Program-made: the position numbers and the translations under genes
The notes under the pieces: generated by a model
Databases searched by the model: none
What the model saw: only the letters and a program-made list of their open reading frames with translations
What the model was told of the DNA's origin: nothing
Assembly (NCBI GenBank): GCA_046734435.1
Contig: JBKPRE010000018.1
Coordinates: 2,471 to 66,470, forward strand
DNA from: Pseudomonadota bacterium
GTDB lineage: Bacteria; Pseudomonadota; Alphaproteobacteria; Rhizobiales; Xanthobacteraceae
Direction of reading: 5' to 3'
Length of the DNA stretch: 64,000 nt
Shown here: positions 41,527 to 63,290 of the stretch, in pieces
How positions within the stretch are numbered: position 1 is the first letter of the stretch
How the letters are laid out: every line of letters starts with the position of its first letter

Positions 41527-41559
41527 CGTGCCTTACATTTGCGCCGACGGCGGTGGCCG

Positions 41560-41586
41560 TGGGTTCCCGCTTTCGCGGGGACGAAC
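41560..41586. repeat. Single palindrome of a related type
   Basis: TGGGTTCCCGCTTTCGCGGGGACGAAC. Confidence 0.55.
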
Positions 41587-41662
41587 GGTTGGAGCTGGTG
41601 GCTGACAGATGAAGGGCTGCCCGGTATAAGCAATGTGCATCGTGTGACCTGAGGCAACCGGC

Positions 41663-42091: not shown

Positions 42092-42225
42092 CGTTCCAGC
42101 CATTCCCGGGAATTGGCTTGTGGAAGCGCTTCGGCGCTGCCCGCGGCGCAGATACAATTGGGCGTCGATACGCGAATAAGAACAATGAGAAGGCGCGCCT
42201 AAGCGCGCTTGAAGGGAAGAAACAT

Positions 42226-42708: not shown

Positions 42709-42755
42709 GTTTCCTTTTTCGGGAGAGAAGGCAGGCGCTCGCCACACTCTCAGGC

Positions 42756-42866
42756 GTCATGCGCGGGCCTGGCCCGCGCATCCATGATGAGGCGCAGCAC
42801 GCAAAATTCTTACGGATGTGCTCGGGGCGCTGCCTCATGGATGGCCGGGTCAAGCCCGGCCATGAC
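42756..42866 (+). repeat. 111-bp REP-dimer unit between hcrC and hcrA
   Basis: GTCATGCGCGGGCCTGGCCCGCGCATCCA ... TGGATGGCCGGGTCAAGCCCGGCCATGAC. Confidence 0.92.
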
Positions 42867-42907
42867 AGCGGAGGGGTTGTGCCCCCAACATCATTATGCG
42901 TGGCGCC

Positions 42908-45250
42908 ATGAACAAGCCCATGCCCGCGCATAACATCGGCGGCTACGTCCCGATGATCGACGGGCCGGAGAAAGTCTCTGGCCGCGCCAAATACACCGCC
43001 GACATCGTGGCGCCGGGGCAGCTCGCCGGCCGCATCTATCGCAGCCCCTATTCACACGCCGACATCGTCAGCGTGGATGTGACTGACGCACTGAAGGTGC
43101 CCGGCGTCATTTCCATCGTCACTGGCGCCGACTGCGACAAGGGCTTCGGCGTGCTGCCGATCGCGCGCACCGAATATCCGCTGGCGCGCGACAAAGTGCG
43201 CTATCGCGGCGAGCCGGTCGCCGCCGTGGCCGCGCTCGACGACAATGCCGCGCGTGAAGCCCTTCGCCACATAAGAATGACCGTGAAGGAGCTGCCGGCC
43301 TATTACACCTCGAAGGACGCGCTCGCGCCCGGCGCCGCGCTCCTGCACGAGAAGAAGCCCGGCAATATCGAGCGTGACGTGCTGTTCGAGCTCGGCTCGA
43401 CCGCGCAGGGCTTCGCCGAGGCCGATCTCGTGCGCGAGGGCACCTATAACTGCGCCGAGGTCTGCCAGAACCAGATGGAGATGCACGCCGCGGTCGCCGA
43501 ATACGACGCCGTGCGCGAGCGCATGACCGTGCACGCCTCGACCCAGGTGCCCTATTACGTGCACCTGATGCTGTCGCAGATCCTCGGCATGGACATGTCG
43601 CGCATCCGCGTGATCAAGCCGCATGTCGGCGGCGGCTTCGGCTGCCGCACCGAGACGCTCAATGTCGAATTGATCGCAGCGCTTCTTGCGCGCAAGGCCA
43701 ACGGCACCGTGCGCATGGTGACGACGCGCGAGGAGACCTTCATCACCCATCGCGGCCGGCCCGAGACCGATATCAAGCTGAAGATCGGCATGCGCAAGGA
43801 CGGCCGCATCACCGCGGTCGAATGCGACTGCGACCAGCGCGGCGGCGCGCATTCCGGCTACGGCGTGGTGACGATCCTCTATGCCGGCTCGATGCTCTAC
43901 GCCATCTACGACCTGCACAATGTGAAATACACCGGCCGCCGCGTGCTCACCAACACGCCGCCCTGCGGCGCCTTCCGCGGCCACGGCACCGTCGACATCC
44001 GCTTCGCCTTCGAGAGCCTGGTGGACGAGATGGCGATTGAACTCGGCCTCGATCCCTTCGCGGTGCGGCGTGCCAACCTGCTGACGGCGCCGACCTTCAC
44101 CGACAACGACCTGATGGTGAACTCCTACGGCCTGCCGGAATGCCTCGACTGGGTCGAGCGCGAGAGCGGCTGGAAGAAACGCAAGAGCAAGACCGGAAAC
44201 GGCAAAGGCCTGCGCAAGGGATACGGCATGGCCTGCTCTCATTATATCAGCGGCGCATCCAAGCCGGTGAACTGGACCGGCGAGCCGCATGCGACAGTGA
44301 AGATCAAGCTCGATTTCGACGGCTCGATCGTGGTGCTGTCGGGCGCGGCCGATATCGGCCAGGGCTCGACCACGATCCTCGCGCAGACCGTCGCCGAGGT
44401 GCTGGGCCTCGATCTGTCGCGGGTGCGCGTCGTCACCGGCGACAGCGAGGTGGTGCCGAAGGACAACGGCTCCTACTCATCGCGCGTCACCTTCATGGTC
44501 GGCAATGCCGCGCTCGATGCCGCGCGTAACCTGAAAAGCGTGCTCACCAACGCCGCCGCGCGCAAGCTCGAGGCGCGCCCGGAGGACATCGAGTGCCTCG
44601 GCGAGATCTATCGCGCGGGCAAGCAGGACAAGGGCACGACCTTCGAGGAAGTGGTGACGGAAGCACTGAAGGACACCGGCACCATCACCGTCACTGGCAA
44701 CTACTCGACCATTCCGGAATCGCACGGCGGCAAGAAATATCGCGGCGCCGCCATCGGCGGCACCATGGGCTACTCATATTCGGCGCAGGTGGTCGAGGTT
44801 TCCGTCGACGAGGAAACCGGCGTCGTCACCGTCGACAAGGTCTGGGTCGCGCATGACTGCGGCAAGGCGCTTAACCGCCTCACCGTCGAAGGCCAGGTGC
44901 AGGGCTCGGTCTGGATGGGCATGGGCCAGGCGATGAGCGAGGAAGCCGCCTATCACGACGGGCTGATGGTCACCGCCAATATGCTCGATTACCGCGTGCC
45001 GACCATCCAGGATTCCCCGCCGATCGAGGTCGGCATCGTCGAGAGCAACGACCCGCACGGGCCGTTCGGCGCCAAGGAGGCGGGCGAAGGCTCGCTCGCC
45101 GCGTTTCTGCCGGCGCTCACCAACGCTATCGCCGATGCCATTGGCATCCGCTTTAACGATCTGCCGGTGACTCCCGACCGCGTCTTCGAGGCGATCGAGA
45201 AGCGGCGGCGGGCGGCGGAGAAGTCGTCCAAGAAGAATGGGGGCGCGTGA
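42908..45250 (+). CDS. hcrA: 4-hydroxybenzoyl-CoA reductase alpha subunit (molybdenum)
   Basis: FGVLPIA...[70 protein letters not shown] match HcrA/HbaC as recalled. Confidence 0.9.
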
Positions 45251-45282
45251 TGGTGAATAGCGCGCACGCCGTCCTCTCAGTC

Positions 45283-45393
45283 GTCATGCGCGGGTTTGAC
45301 CCGCGCATCCCCGATGAGATTCCGCACGTCTCAACCTTACGGCTGTCATTGCGCCGCCGCCTCATGGATTGCCGGGTCAAGCCCGGCAATGAC
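45283..45393 (+). repeat. 111-bp REP-dimer unit between hcrA and hcrB
   Basis: GTCATGCGCGGGTTTGACCCGCGCATCC ... TGGATTGCCGGGTCAAGCCCGGCAATGAC. Confidence 0.92.
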
Positions 45394-45443
45394 AACCGAG
45401 GGGTCGGTGTTTGCCTCATGGCCTGCGAGGGCGGAGACTGGTA

Positions 45444-46460
45444 ATGGACGCCCTGCCCCAGTTCCGCATCGTCACGCCGCGCACGGTCGAGGAAGCAATC
45501 GCCGCGCGCGCCGACAATCCGAACGCCATGCCGCTCGGCGGCGGCACCGATCTTGTCGTCAACATCCGCCGCGGCATCGTCGCCCCGCCGGTTCTGATCG
45601 ACATGAACCGCGTGCAGGAGCTGCACAAAATTCACGCCGATGAGACATCGATCGAGCTCGGCGCCTCGGTGACGCTGAGCGAGATCGCCGCGCATCCCGC
45701 CATCAACAGGCACTATCCCGTTGTTGCGCAGGCGGCCGCGCATATCGCCGGCCCCACCCACCGCAACATGGGCACCGTCGGCGGCAATCTCTGCCTCGAC
45801 ACCCGCTGCATCTTCTATAACCAGAGCGAATGGTGGCGTGACGCCAACAATCACTGCCTGAAGACCACCGGCACGATCTGCCACGTCGCGCCGAAGAGCC
45901 GCGGCGTGTGCTTTGCGACCTTCTCGGGCGATCTTGCGCCTGCTTTGCTCACGCTCGGCGCCGAGGTCGACATCGCCGGCCCGTCCGGCAAGCGCACCAT
46001 TCCGCTCGAAAAGCTCTATATCGGCTTCGCCCGCCAGGACGTGCCGGTCAGCGAGACCCAGGGCGACGGCAAATATTATCTGTCGCTGCGCCCGGGCGAG
46101 CTCGTCACCGCCGTGCGCGCGAAAAACACGGCCGGTTTACGCTCCGCCTACGACAAGATCCGCATCCGCCGCTCGATCGAGTATCCGGTCGCCGGCGTTG
46201 CCGTCGCGCTGAAGAAGAACAAAGGCAAGCTCGCTGATCTGCGCATCGGCTTCACCGGCACCAATCCGCGCCCGGTGCTGCTCGCCGGCACCGCCGAGCT
46301 GTGCGGCGGCGGGCTCGACGATCGCGTCATCAAGGGCCTCGATGCGCTGGTGCGCGACCAGATCATGCCGATGAAGACGACGTTCACGCCCGGCCATTAC
46401 CGCCGGCGCGTCGCCGGCGTGCTGGCGCGCCGCCTGCTGACGCGGCTGTTCGAAAGCTGA
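45444..46460 (+). CDS. hcrB: 4-hydroxybenzoyl-CoA reductase beta subunit (FAD, extra [4Fe-4S])
   Basis: GGGTDL, RNMGTVGGNLCLDTRCIFYNQSEWWR, HCLK...CHVAP...CFATFSGDLAP. Confidence 0.9.
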   Translation: MDALPQFRIVTPRTVEEAIAARADNPNAMPLGGGTDLVVNIRRGIVAPPVLIDMNRVQELHKIHADETSIELGASVTLSEIAAHPAINRHYPVVAQAAAHIAGPTHRNMGTVGGNLCLDTRCIFYNQSEWWRDANNHCLKTTGTICHVAPKSRGVCFATFSGDLAPALLTLGAEVDIAGPSGKRTIPLEKLYIGFARQDVPVSETQGDGKYYLSLRPGELVTAVRAKNTAGLRSAYDKIRIRRSIEYPVAGVAVALKKNKGKLADLRIGFTGTNPRPVLLAGTAELCGGGLDDRVIKGLDALVRDQIMPMKTTFTPGHYRRRVAGVLARRLLTRLFES

Positions 46461-46477
46461 AGACGGGGGGCCGGGGG

Positions 46478-48187
46478 GTGGACATCTTCACCGAGCGCAG
46501 GCCCTACAACGCCGTCTCCGATTTCGTCGACGCGCATATCGCGGCCGGGCGCGGCAACAAGGTCGCCTTCGTCGATCCCGAGCGCTCCATGACGTATAGC
46601 GAATTGCGGGCGCGCAGCGTGCGCTTTGCCAATGCGCTGCGCGCGCTCGGCATCGAGGAGGAGCAGCGCGTCGCGCTGCTGCTCAATGACACCGTCGACT
46701 ATCCGGTCGCGTTCTGGGGCGCGATCCGCGCCGGCTGCGTCGCGATCCCGCTCAATGTCTATCTGACGCTGCCGCAATATGCCTACATCCTGGCCGATTG
46801 CCGCGCGCGGGCGCTGGTGGTCGAGGCGTCGCTGCTGGAAACGATCGCTCCGGTGCTGGACAAGCTGCCGCGCAAGCCGGTGATGATCGTGGTTGGTTCC
46901 CCTCCCGGTCATTCCGGGGCGCGAGCGCATAGCGCGTTGAAGACGCGCGTAAACGCGCTTATGGCGAGCGAACCCGGAATCCAGACGCAAGCACCGCGCC
47001 CGCATCTGGATTCCGGGTCCGGCGCTGACGCGCCGTCCCGGAATGACAGAAGAATGCACGATTTCGAAACCCTCATCACCGACGCGGATCCGACGCCCTT
47101 GACCGCCGACACGTTGTCGGACGAAGTCGCATTCTGGTTCTACACCTCCGGCTCGACCGGCGACCCGAAGGGCGTCAAGCACGTCCACTCCAACCTGATG
47201 GCGACCGCGAAACTGTTCGGCCAGGGCATTCTTGGCATTACCGAGAACGACGTCGTGCATTCCGCCTCCAAGCTGTTCTTTGCCTACGGGCTTGGTAATG
47301 CGCTGACCTTCCCGCTCTCGGTCGGCGCCACCGCCGCGCTGTGGCCGCACCGGCCGTCGCCCGAGGGCGTGTTCGACATCATGCGCACGCACCAGCCGAC
47401 CATTTTCTACGGCGTGCCCTCGCTCTACACCGCGCTGCTGGCGCACAAGGACATCGGCAAGGGCGCCGGCTCCGACCGCCTGCGGCTCTGCGTCTCCGCG
47501 GGCGAGGCCATGCCCGCGCATATCGGCGAACGCTGGCGTGAGGTGACCGGCGTCGACGTGCTCGACGGCCTCGGCTCGACAGAGATGCTCAACACCTTTC
47601 TGTCAAACCGCCCGGGCGACATTCGTTACGGCTCGACCGGCAAGCCCGTGCCCGGCTACGAGGCGCGCATCGTCGACGAGCACGGCCGCGAGCTCGGCGA
47701 CGGCGAGATCGGCGAGCTGATCGTGCGCGGCCCGTCGGCCGGTGAAGGCTACTGGAACCAGCGCGAGAAGAGCCGCCGCACCTTTGCCGGCGAATGGACG
47801 CACACCGGCGACAAGTACCGGCGCGATGCCGAGGGCTACTATTATTACTGCGGGCGCACCGACGACATGTTCAAGGTCTCCGGCATGTGGGTGTCGCCCT
47901 TCGACGTCGAGGCCGCGCTTGTGTCACATGAAGCCGTGCTCGAGGCCGCCGTCATCGGCAAGGAAGATGCCGACGGGCTGATCAAGCCGAAGGCCTTCAT
48001 CGTGTTGCGCAACGGCTACGAGGCCGACGACGGCCTGCTCGAGACCCTCAAGCACCACGTCAAGGACAGAGCCGGCCCGTGGAAATTCCCGCGCTGGATC
48101 GAAGCGCGCGATCAACTCCCGCGTACAGCGACTGGCAAGATCCAGCGTTTCAAATTGCGCGAGGAAGACGCCCGCGCGGGACGGTGA
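46478..48187 (+). CDS. Benzoate/4-hydroxybenzoate-CoA ligase family protein with an in-frame repeat-derived insertion
   Basis: FYTSGSTGDPKG, KLFFAYGLGN, CVSAGE, DGLGSTEMLNTF, HTGDKY, GRTDDMFKVSG, LPRTATGKIQR. Confidence 0.9.
   Translation: MDIFTERRPYNAVSDFVDAHIAAGRGNKVAFVDPERSMTYSELRARSVRFANALRALGIEEEQRVALLLNDTVDYPVAFWGAIRAGCVAIPLNVYLTLPQYAYILADCRARALVVEASLLETIAPVLDKLPRKPVMIVVGSPPGHSGARAHSALKTRVNALMASEPGIQTQAPRPHLDSGSGADAPSRNDRRMHDFETLITDADPTPLTADTLSDEVAFWFYTSGSTGDPKGVKHVHSNLMATAKLFGQGILGITENDVVHSASKLFFAYGLGNALTFPLSVGATAALWPHRPSPEGVFDIMRTHQPTIFYGVPSLYTALLAHKDIGKGAGSDRLRLCVSAGEAMPAHIGERWREVTGVDVLDGLGSTEMLNTFLSNRPGDIRYGSTGKPVPGYEARIVDEHGRELGDGEIGELIVRGPSAGEGYWNQREKSRRTFAGEWTHTGDKYRRDAEGYYYYCGRTDDMFKVSGMWVSPFDVEAALVSHEAVLEAAVIGKEDADGLIKPKAFIVLRNGYEADDGLLETLKHHVKDRAGPWKFPRWIEARDQLPRTATGKIQRFKLREEDARAGR
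46908..47047. repeat. Intragenic REP-like element, GTCATTCCGG...CCGGAATGAC type
   Basis: Right arm 47007-47047 is identical over 41 bp to 52679-52719; the reading frame stays open. Confidence 0.92.
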
Positions 48188-48218
48188 GTGTTCTTTGGCT
48201 AGACGCGACCTCTCATTT

Positions 48219-48328
48219 GTCATGCGCGGGCTTGACCCGCGCATCCACGGTGAAGTGCAACGGGAAAAGCAGTACTGCCGTCATGGCGGAACGGCCTCAT
48301 GGATCGCCGGGTCAAGCCCGGCGATGAC
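48219..48328 (+). repeat. 110-bp REP-dimer unit
   Basis: GTCATGCGCGGGCTTGACCCGCGCATCCA ... CAGTACTG ... TGGATCGCCGGGTCAAGCCCGGCGATGAC. Confidence 0.92.
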
Positions 48329-48449
48329 AACGGAGAGGCCTTTCAACAGTCATTCTCGGGGTGAATCCAGGCGCAGCCTAGGCCCTCCCATGGCAAAAAC
48401 CTCAGGTTTTTCGTAAGCTTGCTCGTTGTCGTGAACACCGGCGGGGGCC

Positions 48450-51400
48450 ATGCTGCGGCGCGGCGGAAGCGGACGGCAGGTGAAAAAACGCCGCCCTGGG
48501 CCTGCCAAGGCCAGGGCCCGTGGCGCTGTGACGGCACGCGCGTCCGCCGTACCGAAAGGCCAGGCGACCGCCCTCGCCCGCGAGTTGAAAGAAGCGCGCG
48601 ACCAGCAGGCCGCCACCGCCGCAATTCTCAAGGTGATCAGCACGTCTCCGGCCGACACGCAGCCCGTCTTCGAGGCCATCGTGCACAGCGGACTGAAGCT
48701 CTTTCCCGACGCCGCGATCCTCATTGCCTTGCCTGATGGCGACAGGCTGCGCGCTGCTGCATTTGCCGAAACGAATCCCGCTCGCATCAAGGCAATGCTC
48801 CGCCGTTGGCCGATTCCGATCACGCGCGAATATATCCACGCTGTCGCGATCCTTGATCGGAAGCTGATCGACATTCCCGACGGAAGAGAAGCTCCGCCTG
48901 AATTTGCATCCGGAGCGCGCTACTTTCTGACGACCGGCTACCGGGCGATAACCATCATGCCATTGATCCGTGGCAAAAAGGCCATCGGCGCGCTCAGCGT
49001 CGTGCGGGTCGCGCCCGGGCCGCTCTCGAAGAGACAGATTGGCGTGCTCAGGACCTTCGCCGCGCAGGCCGTCATCGCCATCGAGAACACACGGGTGCTC
49101 AACGAGCTGCGCGAGTCGCTGGACCAGCAGACCGCAACCGCCGACGTCCTCAAGGTCATCAGCGCCTCGCCCGGCGACATGACGCCAGTGTTCGAGGCGA
49201 TGCTCGCGAACGCCCTGCGCCTCTGCGAGGCCAAGTTCGGCCATCTCCTGCTCTTTGACGGCGAGCGATTTCACGCCACGCATCTGCACGACGTTCCCGC
49301 GGCCTATCGTGAGTACTGGGAGAAGCACGGGCCGATTCGCCCAGGCCCGAAGACAGGTCTCGGCCGCATCGCCCGCGAAAAGCGGATGTTCCATATCCCC
49401 GATCTCAAGGCCGAAGCCGCCTACACCGCACGCGAGCCGTTGCGCGTCGTCACCGTCGAAGAGGCAGGCGCACGGTCGTTCGTCGGCGTGCCGATGCTCA
49501 AGGACGACAAACTCGTCGGCGCCATCGTCATCTACCGTCAGGAGGTCCGCCCCTTCACCGACAGGCAGATCGAGCTGCTCGAGAACTTCGCCGCGCAAGC
49601 CGTCATCGCCATCGAGAACACGCGGCTGCTCAACGAGCTGCGCGAGTCGCTGCAGCAGCAGACCGCGACCGCAGACGTGCTCAAGGTCATCAGCTCTTCG
49701 CCCGGCGAACTCGAACCGGTCTTCAAGGCCATACTTGCGAATGCGACCGATATATGCGGGGCCAAATTCGGCACGCTCTATTTACGCAAAGACGACGCAT
49801 ATTATGCGCGGGCATTTCATAACGCCCCTCCGGCCTTTATTGATGCGCGTAAGGATAAGGCGCTGCATCCTGGCCCGGAAACCACGGTCGGCCGCGCGGC
49901 ACGGACCAAGCAGGTTGAACAGGTTCTCGATGCCACCAACCGCGAAGCGTACCGCAAAGGCGACCCCTTCGTCCTCGCCGGGACAGACCTTGGCGGCTAC
50001 CGGACGATTATGTCAGTCCCGATGCTCAAGGACGATGAGCTGATCGGCGCCATCACCATCTATCGGCAGGAGGTGCTGGCTTTCAATGACAAGCAGATCG
50101 AGCTGGTCAAAAATTTTGCCGCGCAGGCAGTGATCGCCATCGAGAATGCTCGCTTGCTCAACGAGCTGCGCCAGCGCACCGATGATCTCACAGACTCGCT
50201 GGAGCAGCAGACCGCGACGTCGGAGATTCTCAAGGTCATCAGCAACTCGCCGACCGACACGCAGCCAGCCTTCGACGCAATCGTGCGCAGCGGGCTGAAC
50301 CTGTTCCCGGACGCGGTCGTGACCATTTCACTTCCCGACCGCGACCTGATCAAGCTTGGCGCTATTGGCGGAGCGGACAAGGCCGGTGTCGAAGCCCTTC
50401 GGGGGCGTTTTCCGATGCCGCTGTCGCACCAATTTATCACAGGCACATCCATCCTTGACCGGCGCGAAATTGATCTTGCTGACGCGCAGGAGCCGCCAAA
50501 GGAATTGACGGTCGGCGCGCAAAATCTGCTGGCAGGCGGCTACCGCGCCATGACGGTGATGCCGATGGTGCGCGGCGATGAGACGATCGGCTCGCTGAAC
50601 GTGGTACGACGCCACCCGGGTGCCCTCTCCGAAAAGCAGCGGGAACTATTACGCACCTTCGCCAATCAGGCTGTGATCGCCATCGAGAACACGCGGCTGT
50701 TCAATGAATTGCGCGAATCGCTGCAGCAGCAGACCGCCACCGCCGACGTGCTCAAGGTGATCAGCAGCTCACAGGGTGATCTGACAAGCGTGTTCAAGTC
50801 CATTCTGGTCAATGCAACTAACATCTGTGAAGCTAGTTTTGCGAACCTTGCTCTGCTCGAGCACGATGAACTGCGGCTCCGCGCAATGTATGGCGCTCCG
50901 GCTGCATTCGCCGAGGCGGTGGCAATCAATAGCGTCATACCGCAACAGACTCCGGTCATGCGCGTGATCGATACCAGGCAGGTGATTCATATAGCCGACA
51001 TTCAGGCTGAAGAGGCTTACCGCCGGACCCGCCTGGCCAATCTGGCGGGTGCCCGTACAACGCTTGGCGTGCCGATGCTCAAGGACGGCCAGATCATCGG
51101 GTCAATTCTCATCTATCGCCAGGAAGTCCGGGAGTTCAACGACAAGCAGATCGAGCTAGTCAAGAATTTCGCTGCTCAGGCCGTCATCGCCATCGAGAAT
51201 GCGCGGCTGCTCGCCGAGCTGCGCGAATCTTTGCAGCAGCAGACCGCGACCTCGGACGTCCTCAAGGTCATCAGCCGCTCGACGTTCGATCTGCAGACCG
51301 TGCTGCAGACACTCGTTGAGTCAGCCGCGACGCTCTGCGACGCCGACCGGACGATTATCACCCGCCAGAAAGACGGGGTCTTCTACCGTGCCGAGGCGCA

Positions 51401-52589
51401 CGGCTTCTCCCGCGAATTCATGGACTACGTCAGAAATGTGCCGATCGCACCGGAACGCGGGTCGGCCTTCGGCCGCGCCCTGCTTGAAAAGCACGCGGTG
51501 CATATCCCCGACGTCAAGGCTGATCCGGAATATACCTCTGCCGAGATGCAGAAGCTGGGTGACTACCGGACGGTGCTCGCCGTTCCGATGTTGCGCGAAG
51601 GTGTTGCAACGGGTGTGCTCAGCCTGACGCGTTCGGAAGTCCGTCCGTTTACCGACAGGCAGATCGAGCTGGCCTCCACTTTCGCCGACCAGGCCGCGAT
51701 TGCGATCGAGAACGTGCGGCTGTTCGAAGAGGTGCAGGGGCGCACGCGCGAATTGGCAGCCTCGCTGGAAGACCTGCGCAACACGCAAGATCGGCTGGTG
51801 CAGACGCAGAAGCTCGCCTCGCTCGGCCAGCTCACCGCCGGCATCGCACACGAAATCAAGAATCCGCTTAATTTCGTCAACAACTTCTCGACGGTCTCGA
51901 GCGAGCTGGTCGACGAGCTGCAGGATACGCTGAAAGGCCTGGCGGTCGACGACAAGATGCGCAAGCAGATCGAGGAACTCACGGCGATGCTGCGAGGCAA
52001 TCTCGACAGGGTCGTGCAGCACGGCAAGCGCGCCGATTCGATCGTCAAGAACATGCTGCTGCACTCGCGCGAAGGCTCGGGCGAGCACCGGATCGTCGAT
52101 ATCAATTCGCTGGTCGAGGAGAGCCTCAACCTCGCCTATCACGGCAAGCGCGCCGAGACGCAGGGCTTCAACGTCACGCTTGAGCGCTCCTTGGATCCTG
52201 CCGCCGGCGAAGCCGACGTTTTCCCGCAGGACATCACGCGCGTGCTGCTCAACCTGATCTCGAACGGCTTCTACGCGGCGACGCGGCGCAAGGCGCAGGC
52301 CGGTGGCGGTTTCGAGCCGGTGCTGGCGGCTGCGACGCGCAGCCTTGGCGATCGCGTTGAAATCCGCATCCGCGACAACGGCACCGGTATCCCGCCCGAG
52401 GTGCGCGAGAAGATGTTCAATCCCTTCTTCACCACCAAGCCGGCCGGCGAAGGCACCGGCCTCGGGCTGTCCATCAGCCACGACATCGTGGTCAAGCAGC
52501 ATGCCGGCTCGATCGAGGTCGACACCGAGCCCGGCGCCTTCACCGAGATCCGCGTCATCCTGCCGCGCAAGGGTGTGTTTCCGGCTTAG
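48450..52589 (+). CDS. Cytoplasmic sensor histidine kinase with six tandem GAF domains
   Basis: Six QQ(T/A)AT(A/S)-x-(V/I)LKVIS...QA(V/A)IAIEN modules; AGIAHEIKNPLNF H box; LLNLISNG, IRDNGTGI, PFFTTKP, GTGLGLS. Confidence 0.92.
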   Translation: MLRRGGSGRQVKKRRPGPAKARARGAVTARASAVPKGQATALARELKEARDQQAATAAILKVISTSPADTQPVFEAIVHSGLKLFPDAAILIALPDGDRLRAAAFAETNPARIKAMLRRWPIPITREYIHAVAILDRKLIDIPDGREAPPEFASGARYFLTTGYRAITIMPLIRGKKAIGALSVVRVAPGPLSKRQIGVLRTFAAQAVIAIENTRVLNELRESLDQQTATADVLKVISASPGDMTPVFEAMLANALRLCEAKFGHLLLFDGERFHATHLHDVPAAYREYWEKHGPIRPGPKTGLGRIAREKRMFHIPDLKAEAAYTAREPLRVVTVEEAGARSFVGVPMLKDDKLVGAIVIYRQEVRPFTDRQIELLENFAAQAVIAIENTRLLNELRESLQQQTATADVLKVISSSPGELEPVFKAILANATDICGAKFGTLYLRKDDAYYARAFHNAPPAFIDARKDKALHPGPETTVGRAARTKQVEQVLDATNREAYRKGDPFVLAGTDLGGYRTIMSVPMLKDDELIGAITIYRQEVLAFNDKQIELVKNFAAQAVIAIENARLLNELRQRTDDLTDSLEQQTATSEILKVISNSPTDTQPAFDAIVRSGLNLFPDAVVTISLPDRDLIKLGAIGGADKAGVEALRGRFPMPLSHQFITGTSILDRREIDLADAQEPPKELTVGAQNLLAGGYRAMTVMPMVRGDETIGSLNVVRRHPGALSEKQRELLRTFANQAVIAIENTRLFNELRESLQQQTATADVLKVISSSQGDLTSVFKSILVNATNICEASFANLALLEHDELRLRAMYGAPAAFAEAVAINSVIPQQTPVMRVIDTRQVIHIADIQAEEAYRRTRLANLAGARTTLGVPMLKDGQIIGSILIYRQEVREFNDKQIELVKNFAAQAVIAIENARLLAELRESLQQQTATSDVLKVISRSTFDLQTVLQTLVESAATLCDADRTIITRQKDGVFYRAEAHGFSREFMDYVRNVPIAPERGSAFGRALLEKHAVHIPDVKADPEYTSAEMQKLGDYRTVLAVPMLREGVATGVLSLTRSEVRPFTDRQIELASTFADQAAIAIENVRLFEEVQGRTRELAASLEDLRNTQDRLVQTQKLASLGQLTAGIAHEIKNPLNFVNNFSTVSSELVDELQDTLKGLAVDDKMRKQIEELTAMLRGNLDRVVQHGKRADSIVKNMLLHSREGSGEHRIVDINSLVEESLNLAYHGKRAETQGFNVTLERSLDPAAGEADVFPQDITRVLLNLISNGFYAATRRKAQAGGGFEPVLAAATRSLGDRVEIRIRDNGTGIPPEVREKMFNPFFTTKPAGEGTGLGLSISHDIVVKQHAGSIEVDTEPGAFTEIRVILPRKGVFPA

Positions 52590-52616
52590 GCGGAAGCGGG
52601 CCTAAATGCTTCACTT

Positions 52617-52719
52617 GTCATTCCGGGGCGCGCCGAAGGCGCGAGGCCGGAATCCATAACCCGCAGCGCTGCGGAGTATGGATTCCGGGTCCGGCGCTGA
52701 CGCGCCGTCCCGGAATGAC
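52617..52719. repeat. REP-like inverted pair, GTCATTCCGG type
   Basis: GTCATTCCGGGGCGCGCC...CCGGAATCCA ... TGGATTCCGGG...CCCGGAATGAC. Confidence 0.9.
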
Positions 52720-52730
52720 GGCCGGGAGTA

Positions 52731-53543
52731 TCAACGCCCCACCAGCTCCGGCCGATACTCGAAGTGCATCGTATCGTAGTGATACCAGGCGCCGCCCCAG
52801 ATGAAGCCGTGCTGCTCGAAGATGCGCACGATCGCAAGCGGAATGCGGTTGCGCCAGCGGGGCGTCTCGCCCGGCGACCAGCGCCAGTAATCCGCATGGC
52901 GCGTGTCGATGTCGATCGCCGCGCCATAGGCGTGCATCGAGATTGCGCGCGAGCCTGCGACCCTCCGGCAATTATATGTTCCGGCCGCCGGCACGAGATA
53001 CGTGGCGACATCGCCCGGCAGCTCGTCGAGCGCGCGCGACACGCGCGCGAGCGCATCGGCGACGCCATTCACCGTCGTCACCTTGACGCTGCCGCCGCCG
53101 TGCTTGGGCAGCCATTTCACCGTGCGCAAATTTTTGACGACCTCGTTCTTTTTACAGTCGCCATACATGGCGGCGAACAAAGGCGCGAAGCGCACGCGGC
53201 CCGGGTCGCTGTTCATGCCGGGCTGCTTTGGCTCGGCGCCCGCCGCCGGATAGCGGGCATAGAACATGTCGTCGATGTCCGGGTTTTCCAGCAGCTCTTG
53301 GAACGTTTTGTCGGTGCGCCCATCCGAGATGGGGAATCGCGTGCCGTTCTTGAGCACGAGAAACGTGCCGTCGTGGCCGGCGACCGTATGCGGATAGGCG
53401 GCCACGAACCTGTCCAGATGCTGTTTTATGGAGTCCGGCACCGCGCCGTAGCGTTCCTCGGCGCCGGTTGCGTTGACGCAGAGCACGCCAAAAATCGCAC
53501 CAAGGATCGCAGAAGTTGCAATGAACCGTTTTCCCCTGGCCAT
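52731..53543 (-). CDS. M15 family metallopeptidase (D-Ala-D-Ala carboxypeptidase-like), secreted
   Basis: Signal peptide; YNCR, SMHAYGAAIDI, WGGAWYHYDTMHFEY. Confidence 0.88.
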   Translation of the reverse strand: MARGKRFIATSAILGAIFGVLCVNATGAEERYGAVPDSIKQHLDRFVAAYPHTVAGHDGTFLVLKNGTRFPISDGRTDKTFQELLENPDIDDMFYARYPAAGAEPKQPGMNSDPGRVRFAPLFAAMYGDCKKNEVVKNLRTVKWLPKHGGGSVKVTTVNGVADALARVSRALDELPGDVATYLVPAAGTYNCRRVAGSRAISMHAYGAAIDIDTRHADYWRWSPGETPRWRNRIPLAIVRIFEQHGFIWGGAWYHYDTMHFEYRPELVGR

Positions 53544-53636
53544 TGGGTCTCATCCTCAAATGCGATACACTTTGTGCCGTATCGTCGGACGCTTCGTTTG
53601 ATGCCTGACGCAAGGCAACCCAAAAGGGAGGATGCC

Positions 53637-53852
53637 ATGCCTGACTCCGTCTACAAGGTCATTGAACTGGTCGGCAGCAGCACGGAATCGTGGGAGAAGG
53701 CCGCAAAGGCCGCCGTCGACCGGGCGGCAAAATCCCTGCGCGACCTGCGGATCGCCGAGGTCGTCGCACAAGACATGGTGCTGAAGGACGGAAAGGTCGA
53801 AGCCTATCGGGCGAAGGTGAAGGTCTCGTTCAAGTTCGAGGGGAAAGGTTAG
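53637..53852 (+). CDS. Dodecin family flavin-binding protein
   Basis: VYKVIELVGSSTESWEKAAKAAV...AYRAKVKVSFK; GGAGG RBS. Confidence 0.9.
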   Translation: MPDSVYKVIELVGSSTESWEKAAKAAVDRAAKSLRDLRIAEVVAQDMVLKDGKVEAYRAKVKVSFKFEGKG

Positions 53853-53921
53853 CGTGCGGCGTTGCGCGGCTGGCGGGGCATGGCGCAGGCATCGAGCGGC
53901 ACTAAAAGCGGGGAGACGGAC

Positions 53922-54248
53922 GTGACACGATTGTTCATCGCAATGTTGATCGTAAGCCTTGCCGGTTGCACATCGACCAGCAGCCTCTTCTCGTCGAACG
54001 AGCCGCCGCCTCCCCCGCCGACACCGGCCGAGGAGGCCGCACCGCCGCCATCGTCAGGCGCGCCGGCAGCAGCCGGGCCCCGCGGCCCGATGACGCCAGC
54101 GGCGAGCGCGGCTGCTTCGCAGACCGCCGGTGCCGCGCCGGGCGAGTTGCTCGAGTGTGTAAGCCAGTCGTGCAAGATCAACTGCTCACAGAAAGTGAAG
54201 CCGCAGTTCCGGCCGAAATGGTGCGCGAATTTCAAGTCGCCGGATTGA
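53922..54248 (+). CDS. Hypothetical lipoprotein
   Basis: LAGC lipobox, Pro/Ala-rich linker, four C-terminal Cys; GTG start after GGGAG. Confidence 0.6.
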   Translation: MTRLFIAMLIVSLAGCTSTSSLFSSNEPPPPPPTPAEEAAPPPSSGAPAAAGPRGPMTPAASAAASQTAGAAPGELLECVSQSCKINCSQKVKPQFRPKWCANFKSPD

Positions 54249-54276
54249 ACGGCCTTAACGGACAACCTCTCCATTG

Positions 54277-54330
54277 GTCATGCGCGGGCTTGACCCGCGC
54301 ATCCATGATGAGCGGCAACAGGTAAAGTAG
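54277..54330 (+). repeat. Half REP-dimer unit (left arm plus first part of spacer) abutting the GIY-YIG stop codon
   Basis: GTCATGCGCGGGCTTGACCCGCGCATCCA-TGATGAGCGGCAACAGGTAAAGTAG aligns with the first half of the units at 54701 and 56446. Confidence 0.88.
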
Positions 54331-54621
54331 CTAACGAGTGATATCGCGATAGAGATCGCGCCACTGCGGATTGGTCATTTCAACGAGCTGCAGTTTCCAC
54401 AACCTTGGCCAGTGCTTGATGTTCTTCTCACGCTGAATTGCCGGCAGTGGGGCATCGTACTGTTCAAAGTGAACCAACATTTTAAGTTGATATCGTTTCG
54501 AAAACCCGTTGACCAAGCCTTCGCGATGTTCGTACGCGCGGCGAACGAGATCACTGGTGACGCCAACATACAATGTTCCGCGCGGCTTGTCGGTCAGAAC
54601 GTAAACCCAATAGCCATCCAT
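54331..54621 (-). CDS. Small stand-alone GIY-YIG nuclease family protein (96 aa)
   Basis: YWVYVL...TLYVGVTSDLVRRAYEH...FEQY...AIQREKNIKHW...NPQWRDL; alternative start at 54636. Confidence 0.88.
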   Translation of the reverse strand: MDGYWVYVLTDKPRGTLYVGVTSDLVRRAYEHREGLVNGFSKRYQLKMLVHFEQYDAPLPAIQREKNIKHWPRLWKLQLVEMTNPQWRDLYRDITR

Positions 54622-54700
54622 GGCCGACGGCATCACGGACCGTCGGACCCGACAATTGCCCGTTCAGAGGATGACTGATTGACGGACGGCCTCTTCGCTC

Positions 54701-54940
54701 GTCATGCGCGGGCTTGACCCGCGCATCCATGATGACCGTCAGCAAGCAAAACAGTACTGTCGTTTTAGTGGCACGGCCTCATGGATTGCCGGGTCAAGCC
54801 CGGCAATGACCGTGGGTGGGGTTGTGCCTCTCAATTCGTCATGCGCGAGTCAAGCCCGCGCATGACGATTTGAGAGGTGGTTCCGGGTCAAGTTTACGAC
54901 CGGGCCGGCCTTCGACCGGACCCGGTTGCCCGGCAATGAC
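54701..54940 (+). repeat. REP cluster: intact 110-bp unit (54701-54810), collapsed arm (54838-54866), interrupted right arm (54883-54940)
   Basis: Same arm sequences as the other units; the third has a 35-nt hairpin inserted in its loop. Confidence 0.88.
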
Positions 54941-54960
54941 CGTACTGAGAGGTCGTAACC

Positions 54961-56403
<1,443 letters not shown>

Positions 56404-56445
56404 GGCGTTACCCTTTCTTTATCCACTGTGCACTGCTTCTCCACG

Positions 56446-56555
56446 GTCATGCGCGGGCTTGACCCGCGCATCCATGATGAGTGGCAGCAAGCAAAGCAGT
56501 ACTGTCGTTCCGGTGGCGCAGCCTCATGGATTGCCGGGTCAAGCCCGGCAATGAC
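56446..56555 (+). repeat. 110-bp REP-dimer unit between boxC and boxB
   Basis: Canonical arms with the CAGTACTG centre. Confidence 0.92.
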
Positions 56556-56583
56556 AGCCAAGAGGCTGTGCATTCAATCCGCA

Positions 56584-58239
56584 TCACACCCGATCCCTGT
56601 TGAACGTCGGCGACACGCCGCTGCCGTACAATTTCAGGGCGCCCTGCTCGCCGATTGCGTTCGGGCGCTGGAAGATCCAGTTCTGCCAGGCGGTGAGCCG
56701 CCCGAAAATCTTGGTCTCCATCGTCTCGGGGCCGGCGAAACGCAGATTCGCCTCCATGCCGGTCATGGCGTCGGGCGAGAAGCTGGTGCGCTCCTCGAGC
56801 ATCACGCGCAACTCGTCGTCCCAGTCGAAATCTTCATAGGCAGCCGTCACCAGGCCGAGCTCGGCCGCCTCCTCGCCTTCCACCGCAACGCCGGTCTTGC
56901 CTTTGAGTTCGGTAAGCGTCTCCGGTTCGCCGAGGAAGCGCGTCTCGAGCCGCGTCAGCCCGTTACCCATCGGATAGAAGCCGAAATTGGCCTGTCCCAA
57001 GGTGATCGCGGCCGGCTTGCGGTTGTCGCCCTCCCGCGTGCCGATCAGCATCAGCGAGCGGTCGGCCGCGAAAGCGAGCTCGGCGAGCGTACCGGCAAAG
57101 CAGGAGCCCGGCTCGATCAGCGCGATGAAGCTTTTGGCCGTGACATCGACGCGCTTCAGGACACGCTTGAGATAATGGCGGATCTCGCGCATCAGCCAGT
57201 CGCCATTGGCCTTGGCGAGGAAATCGTCGTGCGCGAGCACGGCCTCGGCGTTGCCGTCGGTGCGGAACAGCACCACGCCGATGGCGGCTTCGTTGGTGCG
57301 CAGGTGCAAAATCGCGTCTTCCAGCTCGCGCGCCACCGTGAGCGGCCAGAATTTCGCACCCAGCGCGTGCGCCGCTTCGACCGATGCAGGCACCGCGCCC
57401 GCCGGGCCGCGCACGGTCACGGTCGCGAGCCCGCGTTCGCGGTCGATCTCGATATCGACATGCGAATACGACACCTTGTCCTTCTCGATCTTGCGCGCGA
57501 GCGGCGTCAGCGCAATGCCCTTGGCATCCTTCGGCCGGTCGGACTTCGCCGCGATCTCTTTCGCGCGCGCCGCCACCACCTCTTTCCATTTCGAGTTCGG
57601 CACCACCTCGTCGACCAGCCGCCACTCCACCGCGCGCGTGCCGCGCACGCCTTCCTCGATCGAGCAGAAGACGTCGGCGCGGTCGCGCCGCACCTTGCGC
57701 TTGTCGGTGACGCGGGTGAGCCCGCCGGTGCCGGGCAGCACCGCCAGCAGCGGCGTCTCCGGCAGTGCCACCGCCGAGCGGCGGTCGTCGACCAGCATGA
57801 TGTGATCGGCCGCGAGCGCGAGCTCGTAGCCGCCGCCCGCCGCATTGCCGTTGATGGCGCAGACGTAAATCTGCTTCGAGCTCTCGGACGCGTCCTCGAT
57901 GGCGAGGCGCGTCTCGTTGGTGAACTTGCAGAAGTTCACCTTGGCGCCATGCGTCGCCTTGCCGAGCATGCGGATATTGGCGCCGGCGCAGAACACATTG
58001 TCCTTGCCCGACTTGATGACGACGCAGCGGATCTCCGGATGCTCGAAGCGCAGCCTTTGGACAGCATCGTTCAATTCAATGTCGACGCCGAGGTCGTAGG
58101 AATTGAGCTTGAGCTCGTAGTCGCCGAGCCCGCCGGCCTGGTCGACGTCCATGATCAGATAGGCGACGTCGCCGTCATACTGGATTTTCCAGTGGCGGTA
58201 CCGGGAAGGATCCGTTTGGTAATCGATGATGTCAGGCAT
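56584..58239 (-). CDS. boxC: 2,3-epoxybenzoyl-CoA dihydrolase
   Basis: YRHWK, LKLNSYDLGVDIELNDA, FCAGANI, AGGGYELALA, LPETPLLAVLPGTGG, LTAWQNWIFQRPNA. Confidence 0.95.
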   Translation of the reverse strand: MPDIIDYQTDPSRYRHWKIQYDGDVAYLIMDVDQAGGLGDYELKLNSYDLGVDIELNDAVQRLRFEHPEIRCVVIKSGKDNVFCAGANIRMLGKATHGAKVNFCKFTNETRLAIEDASESSKQIYVCAINGNAAGGGYELALAADHIMLVDDRRSAVALPETPLLAVLPGTGGLTRVTDKRKVRRDRADVFCSIEEGVRGTRAVEWRLVDEVVPNSKWKEVVAARAKEIAAKSDRPKDAKGIALTPLARKIEKDKVSYSHVDIEIDRERGLATVTVRGPAGAVPASVEAAHALGAKFWPLTVARELEDAILHLRTNEAAIGVVLFRTDGNAEAVLAHDDFLAKANGDWLMREIRHYLKRVLKRVDVTAKSFIALIEPGSCFAGTLAELAFAADRSLMLIGTREGDNRKPAAITLGQANFGFYPMGNGLTRLETRFLGEPETLTELKGKTGVAVEGEEAAELGLVTAAYEDFDWDDELRVMLEERTSFSPDAMTGMEANLRFAGPETMETKIFGRLTAWQNWIFQRPNAIGEQGALKLYGSGVSPTFNRDRV

Positions 58240-58266
58240 CAGCAATTGTCCTGAGGACTCTCATTC

Positions 58267-58494
58267 GTCATGGCCGGGCTCGTCCCGGCCATCCATGTCG
58301 TTCCAACGCACCGCCCCTCTGCTTTCATTGCCGGGCTTGACCCGGTCACACTCCATGTCGTTCCAACGCACCGCCCCTCCGCTGTCATTGCCGGGCTTGA
58401 CCCGGCAATCCATGAGGCCGGGAGGCGATGACAACCGTAAGGCTGTTCTACGCGGCAGCTCATCATGGATGCGCGGATCAAGTCCGCGCATGAC
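58267..58494. repeat. Tandem REP arms followed by a 111-bp unit (58384-58494, reverse orientation)
   Basis: Three left arms about 57-60 bp apart separated by a near-identical CCATGTCGTTCCAACGCACCGCCCCTC spacer. Confidence 0.88.
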
Positions 58495-58577
58495 CGTGGG
58501 AGAGGTTGTGCCCTCCCGAGCGCGTCGTCGTTATGCACTATCTTGCATACGAATAACACCTTGCCGGGGGACAGTCA

Positions 58578-58651
58578 TCAGTAATCGGTAATCGGTGAGA
58601 AAAAGCCTATTTTGACCCCGGCACGCGGACCCACTGATTACTGATTACTGA
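58578..58651. repeat. 20-bp inverted repeat built from CAGTAAT heptamers in the boxC/boxR divergent region
   Basis: TCAGTAATCGGTAATCGGTG (58578-58597) versus CACTGATTACTGATTACTGA (58632-58651), 18 of 20 complementary. Confidence 0.8.
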
Positions 58652-58690
58652 CCCATTGATTGCTGAATACCTGCTTGCCCCGGCAATATA

Positions 58691-59686
58691 ATGCATGTTA
58701 CTCAAAAGCCCATGAAACCCGCGCGTGCCGCCGTCAAAGCCGCGACAAAGCCGGTCCGCGAGACCGACGCCTATCTGCGCCGGCTCGGCGAGCGCGTGCG
58801 CATCTTGCGCAACCAGCGCGGCATGACCCGAAAGGCGCTCGCACGCCACGCGAAAGTCTCCGAGCGCTACCTCGCCCAGCTCGAGGCCGGGCTCGGCAAC
58901 GGCTCGATCGTTCTCCTGCGCCGGATCTCGCGCGCCATGGGCCTGCCGGTGACGCAGCTCGTGCACGAAGGCACCGAGCCCGCGCTCGATTTCGTGCTGC
59001 TCAACCAGTTTCTCGAGCGGCTGTCTCCGCCGGCGCTTGGCGAAGCGCGCGATCTGCTGCTGCGCCATTTCAGCGCGCCGTCGGACGACGCGCGCCGCCA
59101 CCGCATTGCATTGATCGGCCTGCGCGGCGGCGGCAAGTCCACGCTCGGCAAGCTCGCCGCCGAGCGCCTCGGCCTGCCCTTCATCGAGCTCGACCGCGAG
59201 ATCGAGAAGCGCAGCGGCGCAACCTTGAGCGAGATCTTCGACATGTTCGGCCAGGAGACCTTCCGGCGCGCCGAGCGCGAGGCGCTCGACGATGTGCTGC
59301 GCCGGCACAAGGGCTTCGTGGTCGCGACCTCCGGTAGCATCGTCACCGAGCCGGGCACGCTGGAGGTGCTGCTCGCTTCCTGCTTCACGGTGTGGGTGAA
59401 GGCCGCGCCTGAGGAGCACATGAAGCGCGTGATGGCGCAGGGCGACATGCGCCCGATGGCGAACAGCGCGCGCGCGATGCAGGATCTTGTTTCGATCCTG
59501 CGCAGCCGCGAGCCGCTTTACGCCAAGGCCGATGTGGCCCTGTCGACCAGCGGCCGCACGCCCGAGCAGAACGTGGCGGAACTCTTGCGTTTGCTCGAAG
59601 TTCCGGATACGCGCAAAGGTTCAAACTTGGCCGCGGATGCGCGGTCGCGCAGCGGTTCCCCCACATTGGATAAGGAACGGGTCTGA
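58691..59686 (+). CDS. boxR: BzdR/BoxR family regulator (XRE HTH plus shikimate kinase-like domain)
   Basis: MTRKALA...VSERYLAQLEAGLGN HTH; IALIGLRGGGKST, FIELD, GDMRPM; divergent from boxC. Confidence 0.9.
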   Translation: MHVTQKPMKPARAAVKAATKPVRETDAYLRRLGERVRILRNQRGMTRKALARHAKVSERYLAQLEAGLGNGSIVLLRRISRAMGLPVTQLVHEGTEPALDFVLLNQFLERLSPPALGEARDLLLRHFSAPSDDARRHRIALIGLRGGGKSTLGKLAAERLGLPFIELDREIEKRSGATLSEIFDMFGQETFRRAEREALDDVLRRHKGFVVATSGSIVTEPGTLEVLLASCFTVWVKAAPEEHMKRVMAQGDMRPMANSARAMQDLVSILRSREPLYAKADVALSTSGRTPEQNVAELLRLLEVPDTRKGSNLAADARSRSGSPTLDKERV

Positions 59687-59710
59687 TGGGATACGTACGG
59701 CCCCTCCTCC

Positions 59711-59821
59711 GTCATGCGCGGGCTTGACCCGCGCATCCATGATGAGGGGCATCAGGCAAATCAGTACTGCTTTTGCCGGGGCGCTTGCCTCATGGATTGC
59801 CGGGTCAAGCCCGGCAATGAC
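59711..59821 (+). repeat. 111-bp REP-dimer unit
   Basis: Canonical arms with the CAGTACTG centre. Confidence 0.92.
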
Positions 59822-59869
59822 AGTGGAGAGGGTGCGTAGCCACAAGAGGTCAAAGGACAAAGGGATTAG

Positions 59870-60913
<1,044 letters not shown>

Positions 60914-60957
60914 TGGGGGGAATGAGGGGAATGGACTCGCGTGCCTCATTCTCGGAA

Positions 60958-61095
60958 GTCATGCGCGGGCACTTCCTCTCCGCTGTCATTGCCGGGCTTG
61001 ACCCGGCAATCCATGAGGAGGCCCAGCATGTACGGCTGTAAGGCTTTTGCGCCCTGCATCTCATCATGGATGCGCGGGTCAAGCCCGCGCATGAC
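60958..61095 (-). repeat. REP arm fragment (60958-60970) plus 111-bp unit (60985-61095, reverse orientation)
   Basis: GTCATTGCCGGGCTTGACCCGGCAATCCA ... TGGATGCGCGGGTCAAGCCCGCGCATGAC. Confidence 0.9.
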
Positions 61096-63203: not shown

Positions 63204-63290
63204 GTCATGCCCGGGCTTGTCCCGGCCATCCACGACTTTCGGTGCGTCCACAAGGAAGACGTGGATGGCCGGAACAAGTCCGGCCATGAC
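63204..63290. repeat. 87-bp REP-like inverted pair
   Basis: GTCATGCCCGGGCTTGTCCCGGCCATCCA ... TGGATGGCCGGAACAAGTCCGGCCATGAC; same length and right arm as 61591-61677. Confidence 0.9.

Follow-up and report, generated by a model that had tools for sequence, protein, structure and literature searches.

The window, by which we mean the whole stretch of 64,000 nucleotides that was analyzed (C18:2471-66470), belongs to an assembly (G000) of 4.29 Mb in 253 contigs with a completeness of 91%. A previous sequence-only reading had described a stand-alone GIY-YIG open reading frame on its minus strand, and the coordinates of this frame as well as its domain match were confirmed. The product has 96 amino acids; the stop codon reads CTA on the plus strand at 54331-54333 and the ATG is found at 54619-54621. 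The sole Pfam match is PF01541 (GIY-YIG; E = 5e-11), which covers residues 9-80, and the AlphaFold2 model shows one compact GIY-YIG domain with a pLDDT of 94.9, the nearest solved folds being those of UPF0213, Slx1 and the N-terminal domain of UvrC. Residues Y7, Y18, R28, H32 and E65 are invariant, and for Y7, Y18 and E65 there was no variation across 63 homologues. When NCBIfam was searched with the protein, no family passed its own cut-off; TIGR01453, which describes GIY-YIG homing endonucleases, reached 16.1 bits (cut-off 56), and no additional domain was detected. A search for close similarity to UPF0213/YhbQ gave E = 0.003 for BH0048 and 0.06 for EF2693, at 23-26% identity, and judged by its sequence the protein belongs to the same superfamily as UPF0213/YhbQ and to a different family. 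Comparison of the gene with its syntenic orthologue in the closest relative, genome G008, yielded a dN of 0.063, a dS of 0.47 and a dN/dS of 0.13, and because of this low ratio we conclude that the gene is under purifying selection. In front of it no Shine-Dalgarno sequence or promoter could be recognized, in agreement with the earlier remark that a clear ribosome binding site is missing, and a scan of the locus for promoters and terminators gave nothing that exceeded the shuffled expectation.

Table 1. Coordinates of the nuclease gene and of the hairpin repeats around it (positions in the window;. = no strand assigned)
Feature	Position	Strand	Evidence
ssn-like gene, single-domain GIY-YIG nuclease	54331-54621	minus	ORF, Pfam, AlphaFold2 model, invariant residues
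Stop-side hairpin arm GTCATGCGCGGGCTTGACCCGCGCATCCATGA, CGTC-type REP/Ssn-related motif, intact	54277-54308	+	sequence, arm search
Half-spacer TGATGAGCGGCAACAGGTAAAGTAG, homologous to the GCG-arm side of gene-less doublets	54306-54330	+	alignment to unit 56446
Leader and decayed start-side arm	54622-54674	minus	alignment to canonical arms and to the G008 orthologue
Gene-less head-to-head doublet, complete, 110 bp	54701-54810	.	arm search, doublet alignment
Single palindromic arm, CGTCAT tag on each strand, CCTCTC/GAGAGG outer boxes	54827-54877	.	
TGC-type arm with a nested hairpin insert of ~36 nt in the loop	54883-54940	minus	
Gene-less doublet of the same class	56446-56555	.	92% identical to 54701-54810
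19.7-kb stretch with 9/18 of the genome's CCATGA-class doublets	41416-61095	.	arm search, C18 coordinates minus 2470

The arm on the stop side of the gene has GTC as its tag, a stem of 9 bp (ATGCGCGGG/CCCGCGCAT) closed by the loop CTTGA, and CCATGA as its tail, and arms of this type occur about 20 times in the genome when up to 3 mismatches are allowed. As had been described before for an orphan left arm, it continues into 25 nt of spacer that align with the unit at 56446 (20 of 25 positions identical), and this half-spacer ends at 54330, right at the stop codon. On the start side, the sequence reads GTCAT(cctc)TG(aa)CGGGC(aa)TTG...TCCGTGATGCCGTCGGCC-ATG in gene orientation, and GTCATCCTCTGAACGGGCAATTGTCGGGTCCGACGGTCCGTGATGCCGTCGGCC-ATG of the window can be aligned to the canonical GTCATTGCCGGGCTTGACCCGGCAATCCATGATGCCGTTCCGCG-ATG if several small insertions are permitted. 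A 7-bp hairpin (CCGACGG/CCGTCGG, 54624-54646) and a degenerate right arm (ATTGCCCG...GATGAC, 54654-54674) had been noted in this region; both are present, and they are parts of the relic of one decayed start-side arm. The three repeat pieces reported to follow were found as well, namely the doublet, made up of a GCG arm (54701-54732), a 46-nt spacer with CAGTACTG at its centre and a TGC arm (54779-54810), the palindromic arm and the arm with the nested loop. An Rfam search returned only a sub-threshold match to a miRNA, on the doublet.

In the composite arm, the nested GC-rich hairpin of about 36 nt (…AACCGGGTCCGGCCGAAGGCCGGCCCGGTCATAAAC…) is located between GGGC and TTGACCC of the loop. Composite arms of this kind recur in G008 (L084:1301-1345) and at L036, L108 and L014, as if a second small element targeted the REP loop.

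When the genome was searched for arms of the form GTCAT-NNNCGGG-CTTGW-CCCGNNN-AT (up to 2 mismatches), 113 were obtained, and since the reversed control pattern had 0 matches in all 41 genomes, the arms exceed what would be expected by chance. Their stem has 9 bp, their loop is CTTGA or CTTGT, and position -1 is a base other than G in about 84% of them. According to the tail that follows the hairpin, they were divided into the classes CCACGT (about 50 arms), CCATGA (37) and CTCGCT/CCCG (12); the classes other than CCATGA comprise arms with a CTCGCTTAGGA tail, NTS-like arms with a GCTCAT tag and arms with the CCACGT tail. An additional repeat family has the structure GCTCAT-TCCCGCG-AAAG-CGGGAAT-CCAGGGC. 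About 40 head-to-head doublets of 80-117 bp are present in the genome. CGTC-tagged REPs were defined by Di Nocera, De Gregorio and Rocco (2013; BMC Genomics 14:522, PMC3733652), who stated that no enzyme is dedicated to them, as repeats tagged with CGTC, TGTC or CCTC, in which a stem of 8-9 bp opens with AT, encloses a loop of 4-5 nt and is followed by a CCA tail; they form mostly head-to-head dimers and occur mainly in Alphaproteobacteria, including Bradyrhizobium and Rhodopseudomonas. Tag, stem, loop, CCA tail and head-to-head dimers of this definition are all found in the arms of the window genome.

The commonest arm class (tail CCACGTCTT, CCACGT; about 50 arms, in doublets of 80-89 bp) is represented in the window at 63204-63290 (C18:65674-65760). 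A search of the 91%-complete assembly for its cognate nuclease found the matching clade to be absent; this clade is carried by the congeners G009, G012, G015, G020 and G024.

Between doublets, the arms are 95-98% identical, compared to 58% for the spacers and 48% for shuffled spacers, which indicates that the arms are under constraint. Most doublets of the window genome and of three congeners possess a (T)TACGTAAG-like centre. The spacers, which are otherwise variable, retain a central palindrome near CTTACGTAAG across four genomes (for example at G000:C50:14499-14587, G005:C1:867517-867605 and G013:C9:1494-1582), and in the subfamily of the window this palindrome is CAGTACTG. A conserved central motif had been proposed for the repeat units, and CAGTACTG does occupy the centre of doublets, but only in a local subfamily (3/14 aligned doublets). 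A gene-less doublet equals the two ends of a gene-bearing unit, the leader side being a TGC arm with ATCCATGA(G/T)GCCG... and the stop side a GCG/GCC arm with ...CATCATGGAT, and this left-right asymmetry is maintained in four genomes. The inverted symmetry of the unit ends reaches about 20 nt past the hairpin and includes the last codons.

In some doublets, the motif '[CT]GCTGA-N4-CATCATGG' was considered as a remnant of the ORF end, which would have made the doublets deletion derivatives, and this was rejected with the doublets of three more genomes. The motif lies within the terminal repeat and is therefore silent on whether a gene was lost or inserted.

Doublets of the CCATGA class are clustered around their cognate gene (binomial P = 4e-17); those in the 19.7-kb stretch start at 41416, 42756, 45283, 48219, 54701, 56446, 58384, 59711 and 60985.

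By tblastn, three nuclease paralogues with mutual identities of 47-55% were detected in the genome. All three (3/3) are bracketed by inverted arms, each by a different class, and every class exists in gene-less copies as well. The paralogue on contig C154 forms a textbook unit of 380 bp, GTCATCGCCGGGCTTGTCCCGGCGATCTCGCTTAGGA - ORF - TCCTAAGCGAGATGGCCGGGACAAGCCCGGCCATGAC, with an arm on both sides. Another one (C18:69284-69562; L001:2814-3101; 47% identical) is located 2.8 kb past the end of the window. The copy studied here has kept its stop-side arm intact, and its start-side arm has decayed; arms on both sides are found at the C154 paralogue and at 68% of the homologues.

The paralogue at C18:69284 lies between two complete NTS-like doublets, in which the tag is GCTCAT in place of CGTCAT, and not inside a doublet.

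At 80 homologous loci of other genomes, nearly all genes are accompanied by inverted GTCAT-hairpin-ATCC arms, which are separated from the start by about 10 nt and from the stop codon by 3-7 nt. With an inverted repeat score of at least 20 within 80 nt of each gene end as threshold, flanking inverted repeats were found for 52 of 76 homologues (68%) versus 1 of 392 control ORFs taken from these loci (0.26%), which corresponds to an odds ratio of about 850 (Fisher P = 4e-49). When the arm-tail class was mapped onto a tree of 87 homologous proteins, 22 changes were required, compared to a mean of 56.3 for shuffled classes, and 0/200 shuffles gave a value as low. Several nuclease clades coexist within genomes of the same genus, each with an arm class of its own. 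The copy number of the nuclease (0-7) correlates with the arm count (Spearman coefficient 0.55 over 41 genomes; 0.70 over those 28 that are at least 90% complete); five related genomes have at least 20 arms yet no detectable nuclease gene, and only one of the five is at least 90% complete. The RAYT/Y1 transposase domain (PF01797) was absent from the window genome in a search that detected the positive controls. There is strong support for a link between nuclease and repeats. That the two belong together had been put forward from the sequence of the window, and tests for an enrichment of arms near nuclease homologues relative to control genes and for co-variation of the arm class with the nuclease phylogeny had been proposed; the flank enrichment, the clade co-variation and the three pairs of paralogue and repeat class bear the pairing out.

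One ssn clade with the arm tail ATCCATC occupies an intergenic position that is conserved among Bradyrhizobium, Rhodopseudomonas and related genomes (L010, L011, L024, L027, L029, L039, L042), where the end of the upstream gene is consistent with dnaN and the start of the downstream gene (ATGACC..TCCCGCATC) with recF. Because this site is conserved across genera, it points to long vertical inheritance of the clade.

A pairing of this kind has already been published, and the locus belongs to a type of gene-and-repeat system that was known before. Chenal et al. (2025; Nat Commun 16:2388, PMC11893778) described the Ssn family of site-specific GIY-YIG single-stranded DNA nucleases of about 94 amino acids, whose genes are typically flanked by the repeats; motifs of this type are found near 71% of the ssn homologues, and 42% are flanked by them on both sides. 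SsnA of Neisseria meningitidis, with 94 amino acids, a single GIY-YIG domain (CDD cd10448) and Y6, Y17 and E64 as the mutated residues, binds the NTS repeat CGTCATTCCCGCGMAVGCGGGAATCYRG exclusively when it is single-stranded, with cleavage a few nucleotides upstream of it, and none of the characterized members cleaves double-stranded DNA at all (PMC11893778). NTS corresponds to dRS3 in oriented form, and dRS3 is CGTC-1 of Di Nocera et al. The NTS-ssnA-NTS layout was compared by Chenal et al. to an insertion sequence, in parallel to RAYT/REP, with domestication as a suggestion (PMC11893778). The statement of the sequence-only reading that alphaproteobacterial CGTC-type REPs have no established dedicated enzyme is therefore outdated, as Ssn nucleases bind and cut at such repeats (PMC11893778).

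The spacing of Y7, Y18 and E65 in the protein from the window is identical to that of Y6, Y17 and E64 in SsnA, residues known from the published mutants. With the proteins of loci L071 and L072 it shares 53-54% identity (54% in the case of L072); the arms that flank the L072 nuclease (CGTCATCCCCGCGAAGGCGGGGATCCAG) fit both the published NTS consensus and the search motif for Ssn-related motifs (SRM), and the arms at L071 fit the NTS consensus. Membership in the Ssn family would thus be assigned by an indirect chain, which runs over size, fold, the catalytic spacing published for SsnA and the bridge provided by L072. Likewise, the GTCAT-hairpin-ATCCA arms would be this lineage's version of the Ssn-related motif and, at the same time, CGTC-tagged REPs. 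The published SRM search motif, HGTCWYN(0-2)YYVSBRHN(0-5)WNVSBRGN(0-2)RNCYNB (PMC11893778), matched none of the arms at the three paralogues, and it is not enriched, as 38 matches in the genome compare with 47 in the shuffled genome. In their general layout of tag, palindrome and C-rich tail the arms agree with the published motif, but they have longer stems. Therefore, the recognition rules of the characterized enzymes may not transfer exactly.

The history of the locus can be read from G008, where synteny extends to both sides of the gene and the orthologous protein is 86% identical; the closest homologues in the genome collection (72-81% identity) show no synteny with the window. The decay of the start-side arm is common to both copies and must be old, since it is shared with G008. 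The orthologue of the window's stop-side arm in G008 is the left arm of a complete doublet, and homology reaches as far as ...CAACAGG(T/C)A. Beyond this point, G008 contains the remainder of this doublet, then a truncated arm and finally 41 nt up to the stop codon, which together make up about 145 nt that are missing in the window. In canonical relatives the arms lie 3-4 nt past the stop codon and about 10 nt ahead of the start. The earlier suggestion that a fusion of the nuclease to the central motif of a unit is the native structure does not hold in view of this spacing and of the doublet in G008; because of the complete doublet and the additional ~145 nt of the orthologue, the junction at the stop codon is best read as a lineage-specific deletion that ended just outside the ORF.

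Across 30 kb of synteny, the doublet sites of the window genome are occupied in G008 by other REP types and not by empty sites, and for this reason neither doublet ends nor target duplications could be read from the comparison. At those corresponding intergenic sites that were inspected closely, G008 has no CCATGA-class doublet, and CCATGA-class arms are much less frequent over its syntenic stretch as a whole. An empty-site comparison, which had been proposed for the gene itself, did not provide a clean boundary: of the 21 congeners that have boxB, 19 lack both an arm and a nuclease downstream of it, but their neighbour gene on that side differs as well. Elsewhere, eight arm-gene-arm units of congeners sit at sites that are empty in the window genome, and pseudogenized nuclease copies were found among relatives. 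Whole arm-gene-arm units have thus been shown to be gained or lost between congeneric genomes.

At the window sites 42756, 48219, 56446 and 58384, contig C79 of G008 contains different hairpin types, for example GTCATTCCGGG…CCCGGAATGAC, and these intergenic sites appear to be hotspots of REP turnover. A sensor histidine kinase of 1379 amino acids encoded nearby (48450-52589, plus strand) contains many near-repeated modules (…QQTATADVLKVISSSPG…). As its counterpart in G008 gives multiple overlapping BLAST matches, the number of modules seems to differ between the two genomes.

It had been proposed that the region 54277-54674 is a nuclease-plus-arms element which is autonomous at present, with the ORF natively placed at the central motif. 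Gene-less doublets that have both ends of gene-bearing units, whole units of congeners at eight loci that are empty in the window genome and the clustering of cognate doublets near the gene would all suit such a transposable element. However, the start-side arm is decayed, and this decay is shared with G008 and hence old; the locus is syntenic and was inherited vertically in G000 and G008; the junction at the centre motif is missing from the orthologue, which indicates a deletion; and in canonical units the ORF is separated from the arms by 3-4 nt and by about 10 nt. Moreover, the enzyme would be a hydrolytic nuclease, and we know of no strand-transfer chemistry for the GIY-YIG fold. Present-day autonomy of this copy is therefore improbable. 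The accompanying idea that the 110-bp units are non-autonomous derivatives fared better in one part, as doublets do consist of both ends of the gene-bearing unit, but their mobilization is still conjecture.

GIY-YIG homing endonucleases are well known, and the gene might be a free-standing one that invades REP doublets by cutting their centre and being copied in by repair via the homology of the arms. The ORF sits where the centre of a doublet would be, and sequence alone cannot separate the loss of a gene from its insertion into a doublet. Yet there is usually one gene copy per arm class and genome beside tens of uninvaded cognate doublets, the protein is a single domain of 96 amino acids that lacks a DNA-binding extension of the I-TevI/Seg type, and TIGR01453 scores 16 bits where 56 are needed. 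Furthermore, some loci are conserved across genera, such as the dnaN-recF intergenic region in Bradyrhizobium and Rhodopseudomonas, and the characterized relatives do not cut double-stranded DNA (PMC11893778). We consider such a homing gene very unlikely. That a housekeeping nuclease similar to UPF0213/YhbQ lies by chance in a REP-rich intergenic region, as the unusual abundance of REPs in the window and the UPF0213 proteins as closest solved structures by sequence might suggest, is effectively refuted, because arms are enriched at the homologues with an odds ratio of about 850 versus control genes and the arm class tracks the protein clade, and the UPF0213 match itself is weak (E = 0.003, 26% identity).

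With a probability of roughly 85%, we favor the reading that the ORF encodes an Ssn-family nuclease located among its CGTC-type hairpins, and that the locus is an old, vertically inherited and partly decayed unit with cognate doublets in trans. By analogy to the enzymes from Neisseria, N. elongata, N. wadsworthii and Wolbachia, the nuclease would bind one strand of its cognate hairpin in single-stranded DNA, for which replication, repair or the entry of DNA by transformation or conjugation could provide the occasion. It would be expected to recognize the tag, the stem and the C that follows the stem, and to cut a few nucleotides 5' of the tag; as the tags point outward, the two strands would be cut just beyond the ends of a doublet or of an arm-gene-arm unit. 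In the copy of the window, a deletion of about 145 nt would have moved half of the neighbouring doublet against the stop codon, and the retained and selected gene most likely acts in trans on about 18 cognate doublets, half of which are no more than 20 kb away.

A CCTCTC box (GAGAGG on the other side) is found 5-10 nt upstream of the GTCAT tag of arms, for example at 54266-54271, 54690-54695 and 54827-54832. Outside the tag, arms of the CCATGA class have conserved this box, as have those of the CCACGT class in part, and its position is beyond the cut site of the characterized Ssn enzymes, on the far side. The box could be either a target-site preference or a part of the repeated unit.

The clustering of doublets, their expansion and the presence or absence of whole units are compatible with local spread by the nuclease. 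It is possible, although we lean against it, that Ssn nucleases also generate and spread CGTC-type REPs, in which case the arm-ssn-arm unit is or was an autonomous element and the doublets are miniature derivatives moved in trans, preferably to nearby sites. Such spreading would explain why 9 of 18 cognate doublets are located within 20 kb of the gene, the expansion of this doublet class after the split from G008 and the coming and going of units between congeners, and it would define a mechanistically new class of elements driven by a hydrolytic single-stranded DNA nuclease.

Which enzyme belongs to the alphaproteobacterial CGTC-type REPs is a question largely answered by Chenal et al. (2025; PMC11893778), and the locus agrees with their answer. 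Compared to that work, new points are that the repeats escape the search motif, that three pairs of nuclease and repeat class are present in one genome and that cognate doublets cluster around the gene. Surveys that rely on the motif undercount Ssn/repeat pairs, because repeats with 9-bp stems, as found in Xanthobacteraceae and Bradyrhizobium relatives, are not picked up by it. The three paralogues, each with a repeat class of its own, constitute a natural panel for studying specificity, and the clustering of doublets and the presence or absence of units among congeners bear on whether Ssn mobilizes repeats. Ssn-type enzymes are of practical interest as sequence-specific cutters of single-stranded DNA.

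Among known systems, Ssn/NTS is resembled in that the protein from the window is a single-domain GIY-YIG nuclease of about 95 amino acids with the same spacing of the catalytic Tyr/Tyr/Glu, that the gene is bracketed by inverted hairpins with a 5' (C/T)GTCAT tag and a CC(A) tail, and that the repeats exist in tens to hundreds of copies, cluster around particular genes and co-evolve with the nuclease. Differences are the arms with 9-bp stems, CTTGA/CTTGT loops and class-specific tails of up to 13 nt, which are missed by the SRM motif, the three pairs of paralogue and repeat class that occur together in the window genome, and the lack of one flanking arm in the window copy. To our knowledge, natural transformation is not known in the host.

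REPs of the CGTC-3/4 type (PMC3733652) share the same set of tags, an 8-9-bp stem that opens with A-T, T-A, a 4-5-nt loop, the CCA tail and the dimers; unlike in their original description, a GIY-YIG nuclease is their partner here and in the work of Chenal et al. REPIN-RAYT systems, or REPtrons, are similar as they have a single-copy enzyme gene inside its own inverted REPs next to many gene-less doublets, one enzyme clade per REP class, mostly vertical inheritance with patchy loss, and arms that are kept when spacers drift. In contrast to them, the enzyme of the present locus is a hydrolytic GIY-YIG nuclease and not a tyrosine HUH transposase, PF01797 being absent, and the tag is GTC and not GTAG. 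With homing endonucleases such as I-TevI and the Seg proteins, the locus shares the GIY-YIG catalytic fold and a small, selfish-looking intergenic gene; however, the protein from the window has no DNA-binding domain, relatives in its family do not cut double-stranded DNA, and it is associated with repeats and not with a single homing site.
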